From: a virus | Taxonomy: Duplodnaviria > Heunggongvirae > Uroviricota > Caudoviricetes | Virus record (IMG/VR): IMGVR_UViG_2562617057_000005 | Length of the DNA stretch: 39,213 nucleotides | Strand: one strand, 5' to 3' | Shown here: positions 2,848-15,214 of the stretch, piece after piece | How positions within the stretch are numbered: the stretch's first letter is position 1 | Layout: each line of letters starts with the position of its first letter | Notes under the pieces: generated by a model | Told to the model about the DNA's origin: nothing | Databases searched by the model: none | What the model saw: the letters and a program-made list of their open reading frames with translations, nothing else | Program-made: the position numbers and the translations under genes

Positions 2848-2911
2848 GGTCTGCCTTCTTCAGGGGGGGCGCTGTTGGGGGTTTTATAGCGCATTATCAC
2901 CTCGCTTTTGA

Positions 2912-3298
2912 TTAATCCCGGCTGTCATCCGGTTCATCATCGTCTTCGAATAACTGCCCCTGCAACCGGCTGATTTCTTCCTTTCTTACGCGCTTCACCA
3001 GGTTGTAAATCCAGGGAACTGAAACCCTGAATCTGCGGGACAGTTCGTGGTGGTTACGTCCGTTAAACGCCTCATAGATTTCACGGTCACGCTGGCTTAT
3101 CTTCCATCTCATCCCCATAGGAAAATAAACGTTTTGCCCGCCCCAGACCTGCATCATGCGGTTCGCGACGGCCTGACCAATCTGGTCGGCAACTTCGGGC
3201 TCAATATCAATAATCTCGCGAACGGTCTCAGAGGTATGCTGTGCCAGCTCCACCAGGAGTTCCGGCCCTTTACTTCGAAACTGATTCAGGTCGCTCAT
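2912..3298 (-). CDS. mor: Mor/C-family transcriptional activator (middle operon regulator-like)
   Basis: 128 aa; the segment GGQNVYFP...EIYEAFNGRNHHELSRRFRVS...YNLVKRVRK parallels Mu Mor (GGGQVYIP...FNGRN...). GGGAG ribosome-binding site upstream. Confidence 0.8.
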   Translation of the reverse strand: MSDLNQFRSKGPELLVELAQHTSETVREIIDIEPEVADQIGQAVANRMMQVWGGQNVYFPMGMRWKISQRDREIYEAFNGRNHHELSRRFRVSVPWIYNLVKRVRKEEISRLQGQLFEDDDEPDDSRD

Positions 3299-3722
3299 GT
3301 TTTACTCCCGCAGCTCTGTGCTGCCACTTCTTCAGTTTCTCAATAACACTGCTTGCCTGTTCAGTATTGAGCCAGCGCAGGGCGCTGATGCCCGTTTCCC
3401 GCTTGATCCACCGCGCTAATGCATTTTCTGAACGGTCACGAACAATGCCGGCAGCAGCCATTTCAAGCCATAGCGCACGGATTTTCCTGGACTGCGGATG
3501 GTTATCCAGCGGTAAACCGGAGCTGGCTTTTCCGGCAGGCTTAACGCGAAAGCCTTTCCTTTTCATGGATTCCAGCACGCAGTTTAGTTGTGTGGTATCC
3601 ATTCCTTTGGTTGAGGCTTTACCGGTCAGCCCCTGTAACATCTGGCGGTAGGTGTCTTCATCCATACCCAGTTCATTACGGGCAATATGAATGAGCTGGA
3701 TAAGACGTTGTTTAGTCATCAT
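3270..3722 (-). CDS. gemA: GemA-like regulatory protein (DUF1018 family)
   Basis: N-terminal KQRLIQLIHIARNELGMDEDTYRQMLQGLTGK pattern typical of Mu GemA-like proteins. Start placed at the first ATG of an ATG-ATG pair with AAGGAG upstream; the track ORF extends to 3761. Confidence 0.7.
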   Translation of the reverse strand: MMTKQRLIQLIHIARNELGMDEDTYRQMLQGLTGKASTKGMDTTQLNCVLESMKRKGFRVKPAGKASSGLPLDNHPQSRKIRALWLEMAAAGIVRDRSENALARWIKRETGISALRWLNTEQASSVIEKLKKWQHRAAGVKHERPESVSK

Positions 3723-4827: not shown

Positions 4828-4905
4828 TGTTCAGTATCTCCGGTATTTTTCTGCCGTTTCCATGCCCGGACAGCGTCGGACAGCTCTTTCAGGCTGTATG
4901 CTGCT

Positions 4906-5040
4906 TTAAGCTTTTCCCATAACCACTGTGTTGTTATGTGCATCAGCAGGGCAGCCAGGGCTGCCCCCCGTACTGAGGCATGTCGCCAGGCCAGTAAGAA
5001 TCAGTGTCCATGCGGTGATTTCCCTGAGTATGTCAGCCAT
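4906..5040 (-). CDS. hypothetical 44-aa protein with signal/lipobox-like N-terminus
   Basis: Not in the ORF track (under 60 aa). ATG with GGGAGG 6 nt upstream, directly after the stop of the MazG-like gene. Translation MADILREITAWTLILTGLATC... Coordinates by eye. Confidence 0.3.
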   Translation of the reverse strand: MADILREITAWTLILTGLATCLSTGGSPGCPADAHNNTVVMGKA

Positions 5041-5054
5041 TGAATGCCTCCCGG

Positions 5055-5351
5055 TTACTCGTTCGTGTAAATCACGCCCAGTCGTGCAGCCAGACGTTCC
5101 AGTTTTTTCTGTTTGTGGAAGTCAATCAGCCGGTCCATCCCCTGAAGGCGCAGTTGCTCTGTCATGATTTCCACGTCTGCCAGCTCTGCCGCGAGGTCAC
5201 TTTCGCTGCCCTGTCCGTTCAGATTGCGGGCAGCACTGGCCGCCAGTTCAGCGGCCTCTTCTGTCAGTTTCAGGGCCTGTGCGTCCGGCCCGAAACGCTG
5301 CAGGGCCAGACGGTAGAGGGCGGTGCGGGTGAGTTCGGTGTTTCGTGTCAT
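5055..5351 (-). CDS. MazG-like nucleotide pyrophosphohydrolase-fold protein (putative)
   Basis: 98 aa with an EEAAEL ... ELADVEIMTEQL arrangement resembling the MazG/HisE EExxE...ExxD signature. Confidence 0.5.
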   Translation of the reverse strand: MTRNTELTRTALYRLALQRFGPDAQALKLTEEAAELAASAARNLNGQGSESDLAAELADVEIMTEQLRLQGMDRLIDFHKQKKLERLAARLGVIYTNE

Positions 5352-7928: not shown

Positions 7929-9698
7929 TCAGTTGCCGTTAACAATGCTGATAACGCTGCTGCGGGCCGGCGTGGTCAGCGTGGCCATGACTTCATCCAG
8001 TGCGGCTTCCGGTACGCCGTCCGGGTACTGTGCCGTTAACTGGCGGTAATGTTCCGGCGTCCAGGTAAGGCCGTCGGCGCTGAACTTATCGCGCAGGGCT
8101 TTCGCGGCCTCCACATGAGTCATGGGACGTTGTTCAGTGCGCGGCCCGCGTACGTCAGAGGCCTGACCGCGCTTCGGTATACAGGCCGGAAGCGTGGTGT
8201 CATCGATATGTTTATACGGGTCAAGCCGCCCGCCGAACGGCAGCGCCTTCGCCTTGCGTGCAGCAGCTGCATCTGCGGCGTTGTCTGTACCGGTGACCAG
8301 CGCTTCGGTTTCTTTTGCCGCCGCCTGCGCCGGTGTTTCCGGCAGGGTTTTGTAACTTTCGCCAAATACCGCCGCGCTTTCAGCAAAGCCAAACTCGTTC
8401 TTTCTGACCTCTTCGACCAGGAAGAACGTCTCGTGGCCGTCCTCACCGGTCAGAACCACCTGTGCCACATCGCTGCGCCACGGGTTACGGGTAATCATCA
8501 GTTTTTCACCGACCAGTACGCCCGGTACCGTTGATACGTCAAATTCAGTGCCCCGGAACGAGACACGAAGTTTTGGCGTGACTTTGCGGAGTTCTGGTGC
8601 CGCCACAGCCAGTTCACGGCATACCTCAACGGAAGGCGCTTTTTTCAACTGGTCAGCAGTAATCTTCAGCCAGATATCCGTGCGGGTTTTACCGTGGCGG
8701 CTGTGAACAGCCGTGGCGTTAAAGTGGCTGCGCCATTTTGCGGCCAGCGCGTTGAGTTCTTCCAGACTGTGAACCGGCCGGAACTTCAGACCCGGCTCCA
8801 GCCTGCGTTCGATAATGTCACGCGCCTTTTCCACCTGTCCGGTGGCGCGGGCGTTATGCGGCTTGTGCGCTATCAGGTCGATGCCCAGTGAGCGGCACAT
8901 GTTTTTCGTCATACCCGCGGTGTTTGCCGAGCCGGGGTCGAGATAGAGTATTTTCGGCACGCCGTGCAGCACGTCTGCGCCGCCACGCTCCTGCATGGCG
9001 TTGATAAGCACAGAACACAGGTTCTCACCGGATTCCGCACCCGTCACATACTCAACGTAAATCCAGCCGCTGGCATGGTCGGTAATCTCGTAACTCCACA
9101 CGCGGTCACTGGCGATACGGGCAAGATTAGCGGGTTTGTTCTTGTAGAACTTCGCGCTGTCCATCACCTGCAGCCCTTTGTGTCCATTGCTCAGGTAGTA
9201 AAGCGTGCAGAGAGAGGCATCAATCTGCCAGACATGATTGGGATGCAGGCTGGCCACTTCGGTATGCGGCGCAGGGGCATCCAGTTGTTCCGGGTGCAGG
9301 CCATAGTTACGCAGGGCACGACTGATGGCATCTTCGGACAACGGGAAAAACTCACCGGTGGTTTCATCTGTTCTGCCTGCGGAGATAAAGCCGTTAGCCC
9401 GCAGGGTTTCCACTGCATCCGCGATGGAATAGAGACGCTTACCGTTCTTGCGGGTGGCCTCACGCAGTGTGGCAGATATCAGCGCGGCTTCGTCGCGGGT
9501 CAGGGTGCTGCGTCCGGCATCGGCGCGTTTTTTGCGTTTATCAGTCACAGAGACCTCCTTCAGCCTGCGCAGCAGAGTGGCGCGGGACATGCCAAGTTCA
9601 GCACAGGCAGCGTCGTATACTGCACCGCGCTTACCATGCCCCGCGTCACGTGCCGCGCGGGCTGTTTCAACCAGTTTTTCAGTCAGTGCCGGGGTCAT
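7929..9698 (-). CDS. Mu-type DDE transposase (MuA-like)
   Basis: 589 aa; N-terminal HTH region and an integrase/rve-like core (WQIDAS ... YLDPGSANTAG), immediately upstream of the B-like ATPase as in Mu. Confidence 0.9.
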   Translation of the reverse strand: MTPALTEKLVETARAARDAGHGKRGAVYDAACAELGMSRATLLRRLKEVSVTDKRKKRADAGRSTLTRDEAALISATLREATRKNGKRLYSIADAVETLRANGFISAGRTDETTGEFFPLSEDAISRALRNYGLHPEQLDAPAPHTEVASLHPNHVWQIDASLCTLYYLSNGHKGLQVMDSAKFYKNKPANLARIASDRVWSYEITDHASGWIYVEYVTGAESGENLCSVLINAMQERGGADVLHGVPKILYLDPGSANTAGMTKNMCRSLGIDLIAHKPHNARATGQVEKARDIIERRLEPGLKFRPVHSLEELNALAAKWRSHFNATAVHSRHGKTRTDIWLKITADQLKKAPSVEVCRELAVAAPELRKVTPKLRVSFRGTEFDVSTVPGVLVGEKLMITRNPWRSDVAQVVLTGEDGHETFFLVEEVRKNEFGFAESAAVFGESYKTLPETPAQAAAKETEALVTGTDNAADAAAARKAKALPFGGRLDPYKHIDDTTLPACIPKRGQASDVRGPRTEQRPMTHVEAAKALRDKFSADGLTWTPEHYRQLTAQYPDGVPEAALDEVMATLTTPARSSVISIVNGN

Positions 9699-10958: not shown

Positions 10959-11279
10959 TTACAAACGACTACCTGAAATAACACGTTGGTTGATTTCGTT
11001 AATACGATCCTGCGCTCGTGCCATCTCGTTACTGTGGGCCATGGCGATCTGTAGTAACTGGATGCCAGGAGCAAAACGTCCGTTCTCCAGTTTCAGGGCC
11101 AGTCCTTCTTCGATGAGGGTGTTGAGTGCTCGGTTGATGTTTGCCGGTGACTCGTGCAGTGCTGCCGCCAGTTCACCGTTAGAAATACCGTTCAGGGCAT
11201 GACCGCGCAGCGCTTTGAGTACCCGGAGGATGCGACTGCCGGAGCTTGAAACATTCGTCTTACTCATCTTCATCTGCAT
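10959..11279 (-). CDS. putative winged-HTH DNA-binding protein (106 aa)
   Basis: ILRVLKALRGHALNGISNGELAAALHESPANINRALNTLIEEGL resembles MarR/IclR-type wHTH N-termini. Confidence 0.55.
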   Translation of the reverse strand: MQMKMSKTNVSSSGSRILRVLKALRGHALNGISNGELAAALHESPANINRALNTLIEEGLALKLENGRFAPGIQLLQIAMAHSNEMARAQDRINEINQRVISGSRL

Positions 11280-11325
11280 ACCTCTTTTGCGATATGTGAT
11301 AACCTTTTACAAAGACTCAAAATCT

Positions 11326-11514
11326 TTAGGCTGCCTGAGCCGTTGATTTCAGTCCCAGTTTCACGGCGATTTCATGGGATTTACCGTAACGGGCTTTGGT
11401 CTGCCCGTTGAGAACGCGGTATACCTCATTGCGGTTGTAGCCGTTCTCTTCTGCCCAGCGGGTGAAAGTGATCCCGCGCTGGCGGAAGAGAGCTTTGACT
11501 TGTTCTGCAGTCAT
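11326..11514 (-). CDS. Ner-like small DNA-binding regulator (Cro analogue)
   Basis: 62 aa, first gene of the leftward operon, divergent from the repressor; AAGGAG ribosome-binding site; pattern resembles the Mu Ner/Nlp family. Confidence 0.65.
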   Translation of the reverse strand: MTAEQVKALFRQRGITFTRWAEENGYNRNEVYRVLNGQTKARYGKSHEIAVKLGLKSTAQAA

Positions 11515-11614
11515 CGTTGTCTCCTTTGTTGATGCAATGATGTTTGCCTTATGTGTGATAGATTATGGTGCAGATTACCTCACCAGTCAACTTAAAGAGT
11601 GCAGAAAAACTTAC
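11515..11614. promoter_or_regulatory. divergent early/repressor control region (putative operators and promoters)
   Basis: 100-bp gap between the divergent ner-like and repressor genes; contains GTGCAGA twice (about 11568 and 11600). Confidence 0.45.
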
Positions 11615-11953
11615 ATGATCGGGTTACGTATTAAAGAAGAAAGAGAGCGTCTATCTCTTACACAGCAAGGGTTGGCTGATGCTATAGGTGTGGCAAAGAG
11701 AACTTTCATTGATTGGGAAAAAGATCGCACTTCTCCTACTGCAGTGCAGTTATCTGCACTATCAGAAATCGGTGTAGATGTTTTGTATGTAGTTACTGGG
11801 GTGCGGAATCAGCCTGTTGTTGCACCTTATGTGTCACAAGAAAAAAAAGAGTTAATGGATGCATTCGACGAAATGAGCCCCGAACAACGGAGGGCAATTC
11901 TTGAAGTTGGCAAAGTCTTCATTCAACCCAAACCAAGCAAACTCGCAGGCTGA
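11615..11953 (+). CDS. XRE-family HTH repressor (immunity repressor candidate)
   Basis: Internal ATG of track ORF 11462..11953. LSLTQQGLADAIGVAKRTFIDWEKDRTSP is a classic XRE/Cro-C1 HTH. Divergent from the early operon. Confidence 0.75.
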   Translation: MIGLRIKEERERLSLTQQGLADAIGVAKRTFIDWEKDRTSPTAVQLSALSEIGVDVLYVVTGVRNQPVVAPYVSQEKKELMDAFDEMSPEQRRAILEVGKVFIQPKPSKLAG

Positions 11954-12039
11954 TTCTGACCTGGACACAAAGGACAGGTGGTTGATCTGGACGCTTTCAG
12001 AAAGCGCCGTCAGTAGCATGGCAGAAATAGGCTGGCTTA

Positions 12040-12070
12040 CCGGAAAGCATTGCGCTTTCCGGTTCTGTTT
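12040..12070 (+). terminator. putative rho-independent terminator at the repressor/dam convergent junction
   Basis: Stem CCGGAAAGC / GCTTTCCGG with a 5-nt loop, followed by TTCTGTTT; ends at the dam stop codon. Confidence 0.5.
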
Positions 12071-12834
12071 CAGAAGTTGCAGATTACCAGTTCACGGCGC
12101 GGCGTGGGTTTACCTGCCAGACTGTAGTTTATATTCACCGTCTGTATATTCAGTTCAGTGAACACCTCTCGCATCTGTGGGATATCGTTCACCGAAATTA
12201 TCATCTTTCCTTTGATACACCGGGCCAGCTCTGCCAGTCGCGAGTAGTTCCCTTCAGGAAAATCCACACCATAGCCTTCCGTACCCAGGTACGGTGGGTC
12301 GCAGTAGAACAGCGTGTGCGGATGGTCATAACGCTCAATGCACTGTTGCCAGTCCATGTGTTCTATCACCGTTCTGGAAAGTCGCAGGTGTGCCGCTGAG
12401 AGCTCTTCCTCAATACGCAGCAGGTTGAAGCGTGGCGGGGATGTGGTGGAGGTGCCGAAACTATGCTCTGCCACCTTGCCACCAAACGCCTGCTTCTGGA
12501 GGTAGTAGAACCGTGCTGCACGCTGGATATCCGTCAGGGTTTCCTCCGGGGTGATCTGCAGCCATTTGTAGATCTGCCGGCTAACCAGCGCCCATTTGAA
12601 CTGGCGGACAAATTCCTCCAGGTGATGTTTTACCACCCGATACAGATTCACCAGCTCACCGTTGATGTCGTTAATGACTTCGATCCTGCCGGGTGACTTA
12701 AGAAAATAGAGCGCTGCTGCCCCACAGAACGGCTCCACATAACATTCATGCGCCGGAAACAGCGGCAGAATGTGTTTTGCCAGGCGGCGTTTGCCCCCAA
12801 TCCATGGAACGATGGGTAATGTCTGCATTTTCAT
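12070..12834 (-). CDS. DNA adenine methyltransferase, Dam family (orphan, phage-encoded)
   Basis: 254 aa; N-terminus WIGGKRRL...ECYVEPFCGAAALYF parallels E. coli Dam (WAGGK...ECLVEPFVGAGSVF); catalytic DPPY present. Confidence 0.9.
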   Translation of the reverse strand: MKMQTLPIVPWIGGKRRLAKHILPLFPAHECYVEPFCGAAALYFLKSPGRIEVINDINGELVNLYRVVKHHLEEFVRQFKWALVSRQIYKWLQITPEETLTDIQRAARFYYLQKQAFGGKVAEHSFGTSTTSPPRFNLLRIEEELSAAHLRLSRTVIEHMDWQQCIERYDHPHTLFYCDPPYLGTEGYGVDFPEGNYSRLAELARCIKGKMIISVNDIPQMREVFTELNIQTVNINYSLAGKPTPRRELVICNF

Positions 12835-12881
12835 AATCTGTAAGCCTTTTACAATTATTAAAAATATGGCAGGCTAGTCTG

Positions 12882-12893
12882 GTCTCGCGAGAC
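12882..12893. promoter_or_regulatory. perfect 12-bp palindrome GTCTCGCGAGAC in the dam / 89-aa divergent intergenic region
   Basis: Read directly from the sequence; flanked by partial AGTC/GACT symmetry; lies in the 234-bp gap between two divergent genes. Confidence 0.4.
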
Positions 12894-13068
12894 TGACTGA
12901 ACCCTGGTCGGCTCACAGCGCATTCCTGTGGGACGATGGCCAGCCCGGTGGGTCCGAAGCACCGGGCTGGTCGTTCTTTCATGATGCGGCAGGGATAGTG
13001 GGATTTCTGTTGAAGTGGTTTAAGAGTTTGTTGCATGCGGGTAAAGCACCGGAATACCGGAGGTGACC

Positions 13069-13338
13069 ATGAAGGTAACATCTGTCGAAGAGTACATTGA
13101 AATCTGGAGAAAGATGAAAAAACGTGAGGGCAGCCTGTTAGCCAGAGCTGCGCCCTCTATGATACCAGCAGTACTGGGGAATGCAGTAGTCACTCTGATT
13201 AGCCAGAACCAGGCAGTGACAACAGAAAGTATTATCAACTATCTGGAAGAGACAGCTCAGAAATCTCAGGGTACTTTACCTGATAGCTGGTACCAAACGG
13301 CACTGGATTTCCTGAAGGATTCAGTTTCGCAGCAATAA
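13069..13338 (+). CDS. hypothetical 89-aa protein
   Basis: ATG at 13069 with GGAGGTG 5 nt upstream (the track ORF begins at a GTG at 13063). Its 3' end overlaps the convergent 84-aa ORF by about 100 bp. Confidence 0.5.
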   Translation: MKVTSVEEYIEIWRKMKKREGSLLARAAPSMIPAVLGNAVVTLISQNQAVTTESIINYLEETAQKSQGTLPDSWYQTALDFLKDSVSQQ

Positions 13339-13489
13339 TTTCTGTTGCGAAAACCAGCAGGCACAGCCAGTCTTCATCTGCTGCGGTGTATGCAGCATCA
13401 GACATGCACCGCTTCAGTGCTTCCTCGTAAGGTTCATCTACATGGCGGATAAACTGCCATTTTCCGTTTTCTGCCTGTTTCCAGCTCAT
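13235..13489 (-). CDS. hypothetical 84-aa protein
   Basis: ATG with GAGGA 7 nt upstream, downstream of the P-loop gene; C-terminal 30 aa are low-complexity and overlap the + strand ORF. Confidence 0.4.
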   Translation of the reverse strand: MSWKQAENGKWQFIRHVDEPYEEALKRCMSDAAYTAADEDWLCLLVFATEIIAAKLNPSGNPVPFGTSYQVKYPEISELSLPDS

Positions 13490-13564
13490 GGGTATATCCT
13501 CATTCTGCTACCGATGGTAATGACGGGAAAACTTTACTGTTTTCACCTGTTGATGTGGGTGTCT

Positions 13565-13990
13565 TCAGGTTTTGTCCTGGCCCACAATCTTGCGCAATTC
13601 CGCCATCAGGAGTTCCTGGTCGTAAATCGTCATCAGTGCCGCAATGGTGGCATGCAGTGCGTCGGGCAGTGTCCATGGGTTCTGGCCTGTGGGGCATATA
13701 ACATCCAGCAGTGCATTCGTCCGGAGAATGCATCCCTCGCTGTATGACATCGGAGTTTTTTCTGTGTATTCCTCCAGTCGGATAAGTGTACCTGCCCGTG
13801 GTTTCTGCCATGTGCTCAGATCATCCCCACTCATACAGCGCTCACCGTCCACGTCTGCGGCATCGACAATGACGCTGCCTCCGAATTCCTGTTTCACCAC
13901 TTCTTCTATCCGCGCCAGTACGTAACTTTTACCGCTGCCCACAGGACCGGACACGGTGACAGTGATGACCGGATTCGGTGTCTGCGTCAC
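13565..13990 (-). CDS. small P-loop NTPase / kinase-like protein (141 aa)
   Basis: GTG start with AGGAG 8 nt upstream. Walker A GPVGSGKS and Walker B-like VIVDAADVD. Divergent from the late operon. Confidence 0.65.
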   Translation of the reverse strand: MTQTPNPVITVTVSGPVGSGKSYVLARIEEVVKQEFGGSVIVDAADVDGERCMSGDDLSTWQKPRAGTLIRLEEYTEKTPMSYSEGCILRTNALLDVICPTGQNPWTLPDALHATIAALMTIYDQELLMAELRKIVGQDKT

Positions 13991-14120
13991 ATCGTATTCT
14001 CCTCTGTGAATAATTCATCGTTTATCCTGCACATCCCGTATCCCCGGCTCTCTTAACGCGCTTTAAAATCCTTTGCGCCCTGTATTTGTGATGCTGTCTC
14101 CACCAGACAAGGAGACATTC

Positions 14121-14471
14121 ATGAAAAACCTGAAAAAATTCATTCCCCCTGTTAAAAAACCTCGCCTCAGCGGCTGGCTGATGACCTCAGTGCTGTTGCT
14201 GGGCACCATCGCTCTGGTCTCGCCACAGCAGTTGCCTGTTGTGATCTACAAGCTGGCACTCATCACGCTGGCAGCAGTGCTGGGTTACTGGCTTGACCGT
14301 TCGCTCTTCCCCAAAGCCCGTCCCGGTCAGTACCTGAAACATGACGACAGGCTGATGGCTGATGGGCGTTTCCCTGTACAGACCGGCCTTCACCTGGTGT
14401 TTTCTGCTGCGTTAATCCGCCGTGCACTGATTGTTGCAGCGGTCTGTCTGGCTGTTGCGATGGGGCTTTAA
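14121..14471 (+). CDS. putative holin / lysis membrane protein
   Basis: Internal ATG with GGAGA upstream; about 116 aa with three hydrophobic segments; immediately upstream of the endolysin. Confidence 0.55.
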   Translation: MKNLKKFIPPVKKPRLSGWLMTSVLLLGTIALVSPQQLPVVIYKLALITLAAVLGYWLDRSLFPKARPGQYLKHDDRLMADGRFPVQTGLHLVFSAALIRRALIVAAVCLAVAMGL

Positions 14472-14473
14472 TC

Positions 14474-15214
14474 ATGAACTGGCCGCAGATCACCTGGATT
14501 GTATGCATGTCCCTGAAACTGGCTTTCGAAGCCTTTCGGGTCTTCATCAGAACCGAACGCCTGTCAGTCCGCGCAGTGACCTTTCTGGTTCATATGGCAT
14601 GGGTATTCTTTGTCGCAATGTTGCTCTGGTGTGGCGGCTTTTTCAGTCAGGCATCCGCAGCACAGCCTCCGCGAGCTGCCCTGCAGTATCGCGATGATGT
14701 GATCCGTAATGCCCGGCTTGAATGGGGACTGTCTGCGCCGGTGGCCGACTTTGCCGCGCAACTGCATCAGGAAAGCGGCTGGCGACCTGATGCGGTCTCG
14801 CCGGCTGGCGCTCAGGGACTGGCGCAGTTCATGCCTGCCACTGCCGACTGGATAAGCCAGATCGTGCCCGCCCTGCGTAGCCGTCAGCCGTTTAATCCGT
14901 CCTGGGCCATCCGGGCGCTGGTCAGCTATGACCGCTGGCTGTGGGAGCGTGTCAGCGCCGCCAGCGACTGCGAGCGTATGGCCATGACACTGTCAGGCTA
15001 TAACGGTGGCCCGGGCTGGGTGCGTCGTGACCAGCGGCTCGCCGCACATCTGGGGCTGGACAGTCAGCGCTGGTTCGGACATGTCGCCACGGTGAATGCC
15101 GGACGCAATGCGGCCAGCTGGCGGGAGAACCGTCATTATCCGCAGCGCATCCTGCGTGAGCTGGCACCGCGATATCTCACATGGGGGGGCAGCAGCTGTG
15201 TGGCATCTGGTTAA
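14474..15214 (+). CDS. endolysin, lytic transglycosylase (SLT domain) with N-terminal signal-anchor/SAR-like segment
   Basis: QESGWRPDAVSPAGAQGLAQFMP is an SLT catalytic-region motif; hydrophobic N-terminal stretch VTFLVHMAWVFFVAMLLWCGGFF. Exact start uncertain. Confidence 0.8.
   Translation: MNWPQITWIVCMSLKLAFEAFRVFIRTERLSVRAVTFLVHMAWVFFVAMLLWCGGFFSQASAAQPPRAALQYRDDVIRNARLEWGLSAPVADFAAQLHQESGWRPDAVSPAGAQGLAQFMPATADWISQIVPALRSRQPFNPSWAIRALVSYDRWLWERVSAASDCERMAMTLSGYNGGPGWVRRDQRLAAHLGLDSQRWFGHVATVNAGRNAASWRENRHYPQRILRELAPRYLTWGGSSCVASG

Follow-up and report, generated by a model that had tools for sequence, protein, structure and literature searches.

In the Mu-like phages of Pseudomonas, variable short open reading frames (ORFs) are confined to fixed loci (PMC4378225). 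A locus of the same kind lies in a stretch of 39,213 nucleotides (nt), IMG/VR virus record IMGVR_UViG_2562617057_000005, the whole of which is called here the window; it is a BcepMu-like transposable prophage. The interval in question runs from the end of the immunity repressor gene to the start of the holin gene. It encodes a Dam-family DNA methyltransferase, a structured RNA, two small proteins of 84 and 89 amino acids (aa) whose genes overlap, and a P-loop protein of 141 aa. I propose that it is probably a composite, in which a semi-core unit of dam and RNA is followed by a cargo slot that in this phage holds two morons, rather than a system of four genes.

The slot is like the variable loci of the Pseudomonas D3112/B3-like group (PMC4378225) in that short ORFs without assigned function lie between core genes and differ from phage to phage. 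It is unlike them in belonging to an enterobacterial BcepMu-like lineage, where it sits between the dam-RNA unit and the lysis cassette, and in being empty in about half of the relatives, which sets its boundaries to within tens of bases. The slot is thus a known kind of feature, one of the variable accessory loci of Mu-like phages; the gene families in it and the RNA beside it are uncharacterised.

Three genes of BcepMu itself, gp18-gp19-gp20 (AY539836), take up this position, flanked by gp17, a cI-like repressor, and gp21, the holin. They differ from the window in lying all three on the plus strand. That stretch of BcepMu has no annotated Dam, the RNA motif is absent from BcepMu, and a tblastn search of the BcepMu record with the P-loop protein of the window gave no match. 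A preliminary description of the window measured it against Mu, which was said to have only the repressor here. That yardstick is off target, and it understates what is normal for the family, because BcepMu carries gp18-gp20 at this place.

Orphan Dam methyltransferases are known from P1 (Dmt), T4 and Stx phages. The Dam of the window resembles them in its D12 class, its DPPY motif and its lack of a partner nuclease, and it differs in being tightly linked with a structured RNA, a link not known from any of those three. Lambdoid phages carry morons, stx for example, in a late-region site with the order PR', tR', cargo, lysis genes. The cargo considered here likewise lies just 5' of the lysis cassette and just 3' of a short terminated transcript, but here the RNA follows dam, late control is probably by a Mor-family activator, and a good part of the cargo is encoded on the opposite strand. 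Small regulators coupled in antisense are found near phage immunity regions, as in immI of P22 (arc/ant/mnt with sar RNA), and in type I toxin-antitoxin loci. The 84- and 89-aa genes, too, are small, close to the immunity region and overlapping in antisense, but both partners are conserved proteins, the overlap is 3' to 3', and there is no sequence relation. Small prophage cargo proteins similar to the 89-aa protein are YnaE (Rac) and YdfK (Qin) of Escherichia coli K-12; compared with YnaE, the protein of the window has about 28 additional residues at its N-terminus, and its gene has a conserved convergent partner.

The features of the interval are these (SD, Shine-Dalgarno sequence).

Ending at 11953: HTH_3 repressor gene, convergent with dam
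12070-12834, minus strand: dam, Dam-family (D12 class) N6-adenine DNA methyltransferase, 254 aa
12864-12979, plus strand: structured RNA element of about 115 nt, divergently placed with respect to dam
About 12875-12899: hairpin H1 of the RNA
About 12906-12936: hairpin H2, with core CTCACAG...CTGTGGG
12938-12972: hairpin H3, followed by GTTCTTT
12899-12902 with 12973-12976: closing helix P0, GAAC pairing with GTTC
About 13000-14045: cargo (moron) slot, boundaries approximate, with the RNA terminator on one side and the conserved block before holin on the other
13069-13338, plus strand: 89-aa YnaE/YdfK-like gene, GGAGGT 6 nt 5' of its ATG
13235-13489, minus strand: 84-aa gene of a very small family, SD-like GAGGAT
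13235-13338: convergent 3' overlap of the 84- and 89-aa genes, 104 nt
13565-13990, minus strand: gene for the small P-loop protein, 141 aa, GTG start, SD GAGGAG, divergent from holin
14053-14071, plus strand: conserved block TTAACGCGCTTTAAAATCC, with -10-like TAAAAT and no -35
14121, plus strand: ATG of holin (PF13272, E=1.4e-41), start of the rightward late arm

The four ORFs stand where the preliminary description put them, and SD sequences precede them all. The RNA was not part of that description.

A hot spot for unrelated small genes

About 120 related BcepMu-like loci (labelled L001-L121) were compared. Among those found with the P-loop, 84-aa and 89-aa proteins there are at least seven arrangements between repressor and holin. 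The slot was measured in the 65 loci having both the RNA and the holin gene. In 32 of them the slot is empty, and only 91-137 nt separate the T-run that ends the RNA from the ATG of holin. In the other 33 it is filled with 0.56-2.15 kb of varied, mostly unannotated genes. The ORFs of the occupied slots fall into 44 clusters, and ten cluster representatives gave no Pfam or PADLOC match except to DUF2441 and, weakly, to a 2TM effector.

The exchange can be seen by setting the window beside the E. coli prophage L002. Positions 11300-13022 (95% identity) and 13604-14500 (93%) align, and phage PhiKM aligns over similar flanks. What lies between, 13023-13603, is swapped in L002 for 955 bp of other genes: an ORF of 71 aa, another of 134 aa, and a C-terminal extension of the P-loop protein by 109 residues. 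A blastn search with the segment 13000-13620 gave no match among 5,426 complete E. coli genomes and none among 50,697 phage records. The G+C content of the slot region is 0.50 (0.45-0.50 for the cargo), as against 0.57 in the late arm. Conserved flanks, content that is present, absent or replaced, and a deviating composition are the marks of a moron hot spot, and the slot is one, exchanging unrelated small genes among related prophages. The preliminary description had foreseen a variable block between conserved flanks, and that is borne out by flanks 93-95% identical and a slot so often empty. It had called the block an accessory module of about 2 kb; a variable part does exist, but it measures about 1.05 kb, not 2.2 kb.

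The slot of the window holds two independent morons, the P-loop gene and the antisense-coupled pair of 84- and 89-aa genes. The P-loop gene occurs apart from the other units in L063 and L100. The pair occurs without the P-loop gene in L039, L040/41 and L048, and without dam in L012-14, where its neighbour encodes a 149-aa protein with nothing of the P-loop family but the C-terminal helix. The unit of Dam and RNA is widespread and semi-core. It follows from this independent distribution that the four genes are not the single module that they had been taken for.

The nearest records to the window are phage PhiKM, a Bcepmuvirus by classification, and prophages carried by 638 (about 12%) of the 5,426 complete E. 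coli genomes. The slot is an insertion site delimited at base level in this prophage group. It holds dozens of unannotated small-gene families, in units small enough to clone and test, and is a practical place to seek genes for exclusion, defence or modulation of the host. Individual units could have defence or control roles. The likeliest pay-off of the cargo, as with other morons, would be in lysogen fitness or in competition between phages.

In Dam-less relatives a gene for a 329-aa protein with a predicted membrane-spanning segment (L012-L014, 3970-4959, plus strand; L029-L034, 5190-6173, minus strand) sits directly after the repressor and in the same direction. KP12 (L003) has a 177-aa relative of it at 2861-3394 on the plus strand, with 25% identity. 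By analogy with other prophages, this is the classic position of an exclusion gene expressed in the lysogen.

The convergent pair

The 84- and 89-aa genes travel together in five lineages, always overlapping by 101-107 nt, while the identity of the 84-aa protein to that of the window ranges over 37-100%; in three diverged lineages it is 37-57%. In the halves of the genes that do not overlap, the ratio of nonsynonymous to synonymous change (pN/pS) is 0.31-0.64 (0.31-0.50 for codons 1-49 of the 84-aa gene, 0.34-0.64 for the 89-aa gene), with pS at 0.57-0.85, near saturation, and pN at 0.20-0.45. Within the overlap nucleotide identity is raised and synonymous change lowered, with pS falling to 0.14-0.26 in some pairs of lineages and still reaching 0.5-0.65 against the most diverged ones. 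Variant L006 has three substitutions in the overlap that alter the 89-aa protein, none of which alters the 84-aa protein. As judged by these substitution patterns, both small ORFs are conserved beyond chance and are under purifying selection.

What the proteins do is another matter. The preliminary description could name no family for three of the four genes, and this holds for the 84-aa protein; the 89-aa protein belongs to phrog_2718 (E=3.8e-7) and the P-loop protein to phrog_3787. The 89-aa protein has 32% identity to K-12 YnaE over 60 residues (BLASTP pairwise E=3e-9), and a precomputed match to the YnaE family PF27475 is graded only 'faint'. Membership in the YnaE/YdfK family gives no function, because YnaE of K-12 is itself annotated 'uncharacterized protein', and literature searches on YnaE/YdfK found no functional description of these genes. 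An exhaustive phmmer search of 1.84 billion representatives with the 84-aa protein found three credible clusters. Three weaker matches were taken as spurious, and two of these were shown to be tail-fibre and immunoglobulin-like repeat proteins. The exact 84-aa protein, which bears a Shigella sonnei name in one source, is found on 18 contigs, and all eight places displayed share the context of the window. Its AlphaFold2 (AF2) model consists of a beta-hairpin, two helices and a disordered tail, with a mean predicted local distance difference test (pLDDT) score of 59.7. A ribbon-helix-helix fold was considered and set aside: it calls for a single strand where the model has a beta-hairpin, and Pfam does not support it.

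Two proteins encoded on opposite strands of the same hundred or so nucleotides make a compact case in which to study antisense coupling. Convergent transcripts of the two genes would overlap by at least 104 nt, so that each would dampen the other. One may go further and suppose a two-state module complete in itself, for instance a switch of toxin-antitoxin-like or abortive-infection type, whose antisense overlap makes expression of the two genes mutually exclusive. Such a switch would move as a unit, as the pair does, and would keep its overlap even where the proteins have fallen to 37-38% identity with the two of the window. Selection on both frames, and the L006 substitutions that are silent in one frame and not in the other, are also what one would expect of it. 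But neither protein matches a toxin or antitoxin domain above threshold in Pfam, PHROGs, PADLOC or NCBIfam scans, and classical toxin-antitoxin pairs are co-directional while this one is convergent. Moreover, the YnaE/YdfK relatives in K-12 have no homologous partner, the antisense ORF there being unrelated, and the overlap may be nothing more than the 84-aa ORF running on to its first stop, because its last 14 or so residues are not conserved. I consider the switch unlikely, and retain the view of the pair as one moron of two conserved proteins.

In K-12, an ORF of 83 codons (4849-5100, plus strand) lies opposite ynaE (L038, NC_000913.3, 4992-5225, minus strand), with a 3' overlap of 109 nt. 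It is in AT-rich DNA, is unrelated to the 84-aa family, and is probably there by chance.

Two structures in the pair were examined as RNA elements and rejected. A 14-nt inverted repeat on either side of the overlap (13220-13233 and 13334-13347) is lost as a stem in L039 and L006, and it reflects a peptide motif common to the two proteins, T-T-E-x-I-I / A-T-E-I-I. A terminator-like hairpin on the plus strand at 13442-13460 is not conserved in L013.

The dam gene and its RNA

There is little doubt about the class of the methyltransferase. It passes the cutoffs of PF02086 (E=1.7e-28; 100.4 bits against 22) and TIGR00571 (116.4 bits against 114.85), matches phrog_56 (E=1e-99) and PADLOC MTase_II (E=1e-110), and carries both motifs of the D12 class, the catalytic FYCDPPYLG and EPFCGAAALYF, which is like the FxGxG motif that binds S-adenosylmethionine. 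With the equivalog model of E. coli Dam it scores 66 bits against a cutoff of 441, so it is not an orthologue of the host enzyme. Its PADLOC matches are restricted to the generic MTase_II/oMTase models. Pfam and PADLOC scans found no nuclease domain in its neighbours (the repressor, the RNA region, the small ORFs) that would make it part of a type II restriction-modification system; because no neighbour carries one, this Dam-family methylase is an orphan. Its substrate would be phage DNA, methylated probably at GATC, either as a shield against restriction or as an epigenetic mark.

A gene for a 388-aa protein with an HSDR_N (nuclease-like) domain is convergent with dam in L041 (6426-7592, minus strand), in the place where other relatives have the repressor region. 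In that phage the two could form a genuine restriction-modification pair.

The RNA lies in the stretch of about 190 bp 5' of dam that is kept in every Dam-bearing arrangement. The folds of 13, and then of 64, unique homologues agree in showing these three hairpins. In 23 representative sequences, the proportion of pairing cells is 97.1%, slid controls reaching 36-55%; compensatory change is seen in 11 pairs; and not one of 500 shuffles attains any of the observed measures. Covariation is present in 8 of the 12 pairs of H3 and in 3 of the 4 pairs of P0. In P0, the sequence GAGC or GAAC at the 3' foot of H1 pairs with GCTC or GTTC just past H3, so that the helix encloses H2 and H3 and puts the T-run immediately after itself. 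The strand that is read can be told from several sides: 12 sequences folded both ways are all more stable on the plus strand than on the complement, by 3-26 kcal/mol; H3 is GC-rich and the T-run is next to it on the plus strand; and the G-U pairs and T-run are consistent with the plus strand only. The RNA is conserved in structure, read on the plus strand, and ends in an intrinsic terminator. Its start is put provisionally at about 12864, upstream of which there are only weak -10-like elements.

Homologues of the RNA are present in L001-L011, L015-L028, L035, L039-L041 and L042-L121. A motif scan of IMG/VR gave 79 true loci, and in 67 of the 72 loci measured the motif is 75-78 nt from the ATG of dam. 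It is absent from every Dam-less relative examined and from BcepMu. Rfam covariance models gave no match at E<=1 in positions 11000-14500 of the window. This is a previously undescribed RNA family, tied to phage Dam.

The function of the RNA has to be guessed from its shape. It would be transcribed as a short, terminated RNA, with the effect of insulating or attenuating transcription to the right. P0 shares a segment with the base of H1, so that the two would compete for GAGC/GAAC and the terminator could be switchable. The layout of H1 and P0 is that of an attenuator, and the role suggested by it is putative. Covariation thus backs a terminator with a possible switch. The 89-aa gene would then be reached by read-through of the terminator. 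In L039 and L040, the start codon of the YnaE-like gene is only about 20-35 nt beyond the T-run; because this leaves no room for a promoter, the gene there must be transcribed by read-through.

A different account takes its cue from lambda, where PR', 6S RNA and tR' form the leader of the late operon. The RNA would be a late-operon leader, the late genes would be under the control of antitermination at its end, and the slot would correspond to the stx locus of lambdoid phages. Half of the relatives do have the terminator just 91-137 nt 5' of holin on the same strand, plus-strand cargo genes come directly after it, and the covarying P0 is in competition with the base of H1, as in an attenuator. 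Against this, the RNA tracks dam and not the late operon, being gone from all Dam-less relatives, which keep the holin cassette. The window also encodes a Mor-family activator and has a conserved promoter-like block beside holin, and two of its minus-strand genes lie between the RNA and holin. A late leader is rather improbable, and an element attached to dam accords better with the distribution.

The boldest form of my own proposal goes beyond a composite interval. The RNA would be a new class of riboregulator, a switchable branched terminator (H1 versus P0) gating transcription from the dam control region into downstream plus-strand cargo, such as the YnaE-like gene, and perhaps into the lysis operon in empty-slot phages; and the 84/89 pair would be a novel switch of two proteins locked in antisense, serving exclusion or the control of lysogeny. 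I offer the combination as a long shot.

In nearly all lineages the apex of H1 (12883-12892) also reads as a perfect DNA palindrome (TCTCGCGAGA, TTCTCGAGAA, GCGTCGACGC, CATCGCGATG). The loop being self-complementary as well, H1 could serve, besides as an RNA hairpin, as an operator of double-stranded DNA in the control region of dam. A complementarity search of the window with the conserved segment of H2 gave a match only to itself. A 111-codon ORF on the minus strand across the RNA region (12746-13081) was rejected as a gene: its start is not conserved, and the changes in the stems keep the pairing, not the codons.

One system or several units?

Several points weigh against the interval as I read it. 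The IMG/VR loci were collected by means of the H2 motif, so the conservation of H2 and the linkage of Dam with the RNA are partly ascertained. GATC is the probable specificity of Dam, as predicted rather than established. The read-through model is built on the spacing in two relatives, and in the window itself the 89 nt from T-run to the start of the 89-aa gene offer space for a weak promoter. A sigma-70 promoter scan gave 3 sites versus 2.8 expected by chance, and every promoter considered, whether of the RNA, of dam, of the P-loop gene or of the late operon, is putative, as is the number of transcription units in the interval. Finally, the exact four-gene combination of the window recurs on at least 18 contigs, so neighbours may interact.

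This last point also serves the interpretation of the preliminary description, that the four genes make up one undescribed system of defence, anti-defence or lysogeny control. They are adjacent, they recur together on 18 contigs with the 84-aa protein identical, and the interval adjoins the immunity repressor, where exclusion genes of prophages are commonly situated. To this may be added the HSDR_N gene next to dam in L041 and the cargo protein elsewhere that is weakly like a 2TM effector. Against it, the parts are distributed independently, and Dam and the RNA are found in phages whose slot is empty. The search for known defence genes gave matches for the methylase only: with PADLOC-DB 2.0 the best E-values of the other three proteins were 0.0016 or higher and concerned the Walker A region or a short stretch, and Pfam, PHROGs, NCBIfam and PADLOC, run on all the proteins of the module, assigned a function to Dam alone. 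Literature searches on the accessory genes of BcepMu and on Bcepmuvirus found no functional description of the genes or of the slot. A single new system made of the four genes is not supported, and I regard it as very unlikely; a dam-RNA unit beside a slot with two morons fits the distribution.

The P-loop protein

The P-loop protein has a Walker A motif, GPVGSGKS (residues 15-22), that is invariant in its family, and it matches phrog_3787 with E=2.9e-78. The family has a core of 138 aa and comes in forms of 141, 158 and 247 aa; divergent homologues of 136-250 aa are found in L117, L063 and L036. Candidates for Walker B, after hydrophobic strands, are SVIVDAAD and IRLEEY, and the AF2 model has three strands only (pLDDT 50.1). 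Searches of Pfam, PDB and PADLOC gave matches confined to the Walker A region, with no Pfam nucleoside triphosphatase family at cutoff. PDB sequence searches ranked a de novo designed ATPase first, with E=0.01, the other matches being at the level of Walker A or noise, and Foldseek searches of PDB with the models of this protein and the 84-aa protein gave nothing at E<=0.001.

Homology to the 247-aa form breaks off at about residue 138, at a recombination junction. The gene is mosaic, because this break lies within it. That the interval has partly decayed, with the 141-aa protein left over from a truncation of the 247-aa form and the small overlapping ORFs artefacts of annotation, might be argued from this break, from a match covering profile positions 1-139 of 242 only, and from structure models of low confidence, but it is highly improbable given that forms of 141 and 158 aa with intact ends recur in other lineages at 75-88% identity, that divergent short homologues of 136-151 aa exist, that in five lineages both small ORFs are constant in length and frame and have pN/pS below 1, and that all three genes have SD sequences.

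Comparison of the gene with those of L002 (4821-5564, minus strand), L013 (5438-5887, minus strand), L117 and L063 reveals mosaics that share the N-terminal P-loop domain and a C-terminal helix (W.LPDA.HA..AAL..YDQ.L..EL.K) and differ in their middles or tails. One relative keeps the C-terminal helix on an N-terminus that is not a P-loop domain.

The P-loop and 84-aa genes, which have no terminator between them, would share one leftward transcript, its promoter standing back-to-back with that of the late operon.

Late control and the rest of the prophage

Elsewhere in the window lie the following features.

1-1422: host chloride-channel gene
2912-3298, minus strand: gene for a Mor-family activator, distal end of the early arm (PF08765, E=5e-41)
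7929-9698: transposase gene, leftward early arm
Early arm, leftward: genes for Gam and GemA
12039-12063: GC-rich hairpin between the stop codons of repressor and dam, with a 10-bp stem of which 6 pairs are GC

The hairpin at 12039-12063 is a candidate bidirectional terminator. A 30-nt direct repeat with 73% identity (11294-11323 and 12836-12865), containing ...CCTTTTACAA..., stands just 5' of the starts of an IclR-like early gene and of dam. The repeat with CCTTTTACAA may be a shared context for translation initiation or for an operator, or a matter of chance.

The last 75 or so nucleotides before holin are common to the window and its empty-slot relatives, including TTAACGC..TTTAAAATCC. The block at 14053-14071 within the window is a single copy, and further copies sought there were not found. 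It is a candidate activator-dependent late promoter, which is plausible because the window encodes the Mor-family activator; together, block and activator gene suggest late transcription in the style of Mu. A hairpin, GTCTCC-N9-GGAGAC (14096-14116, plus strand), sequesters the SD sequence of holin, AGGAG (14110-14114). The same pairing is present in most of the empty-slot relatives, and the hairpin may control the translation of holin.

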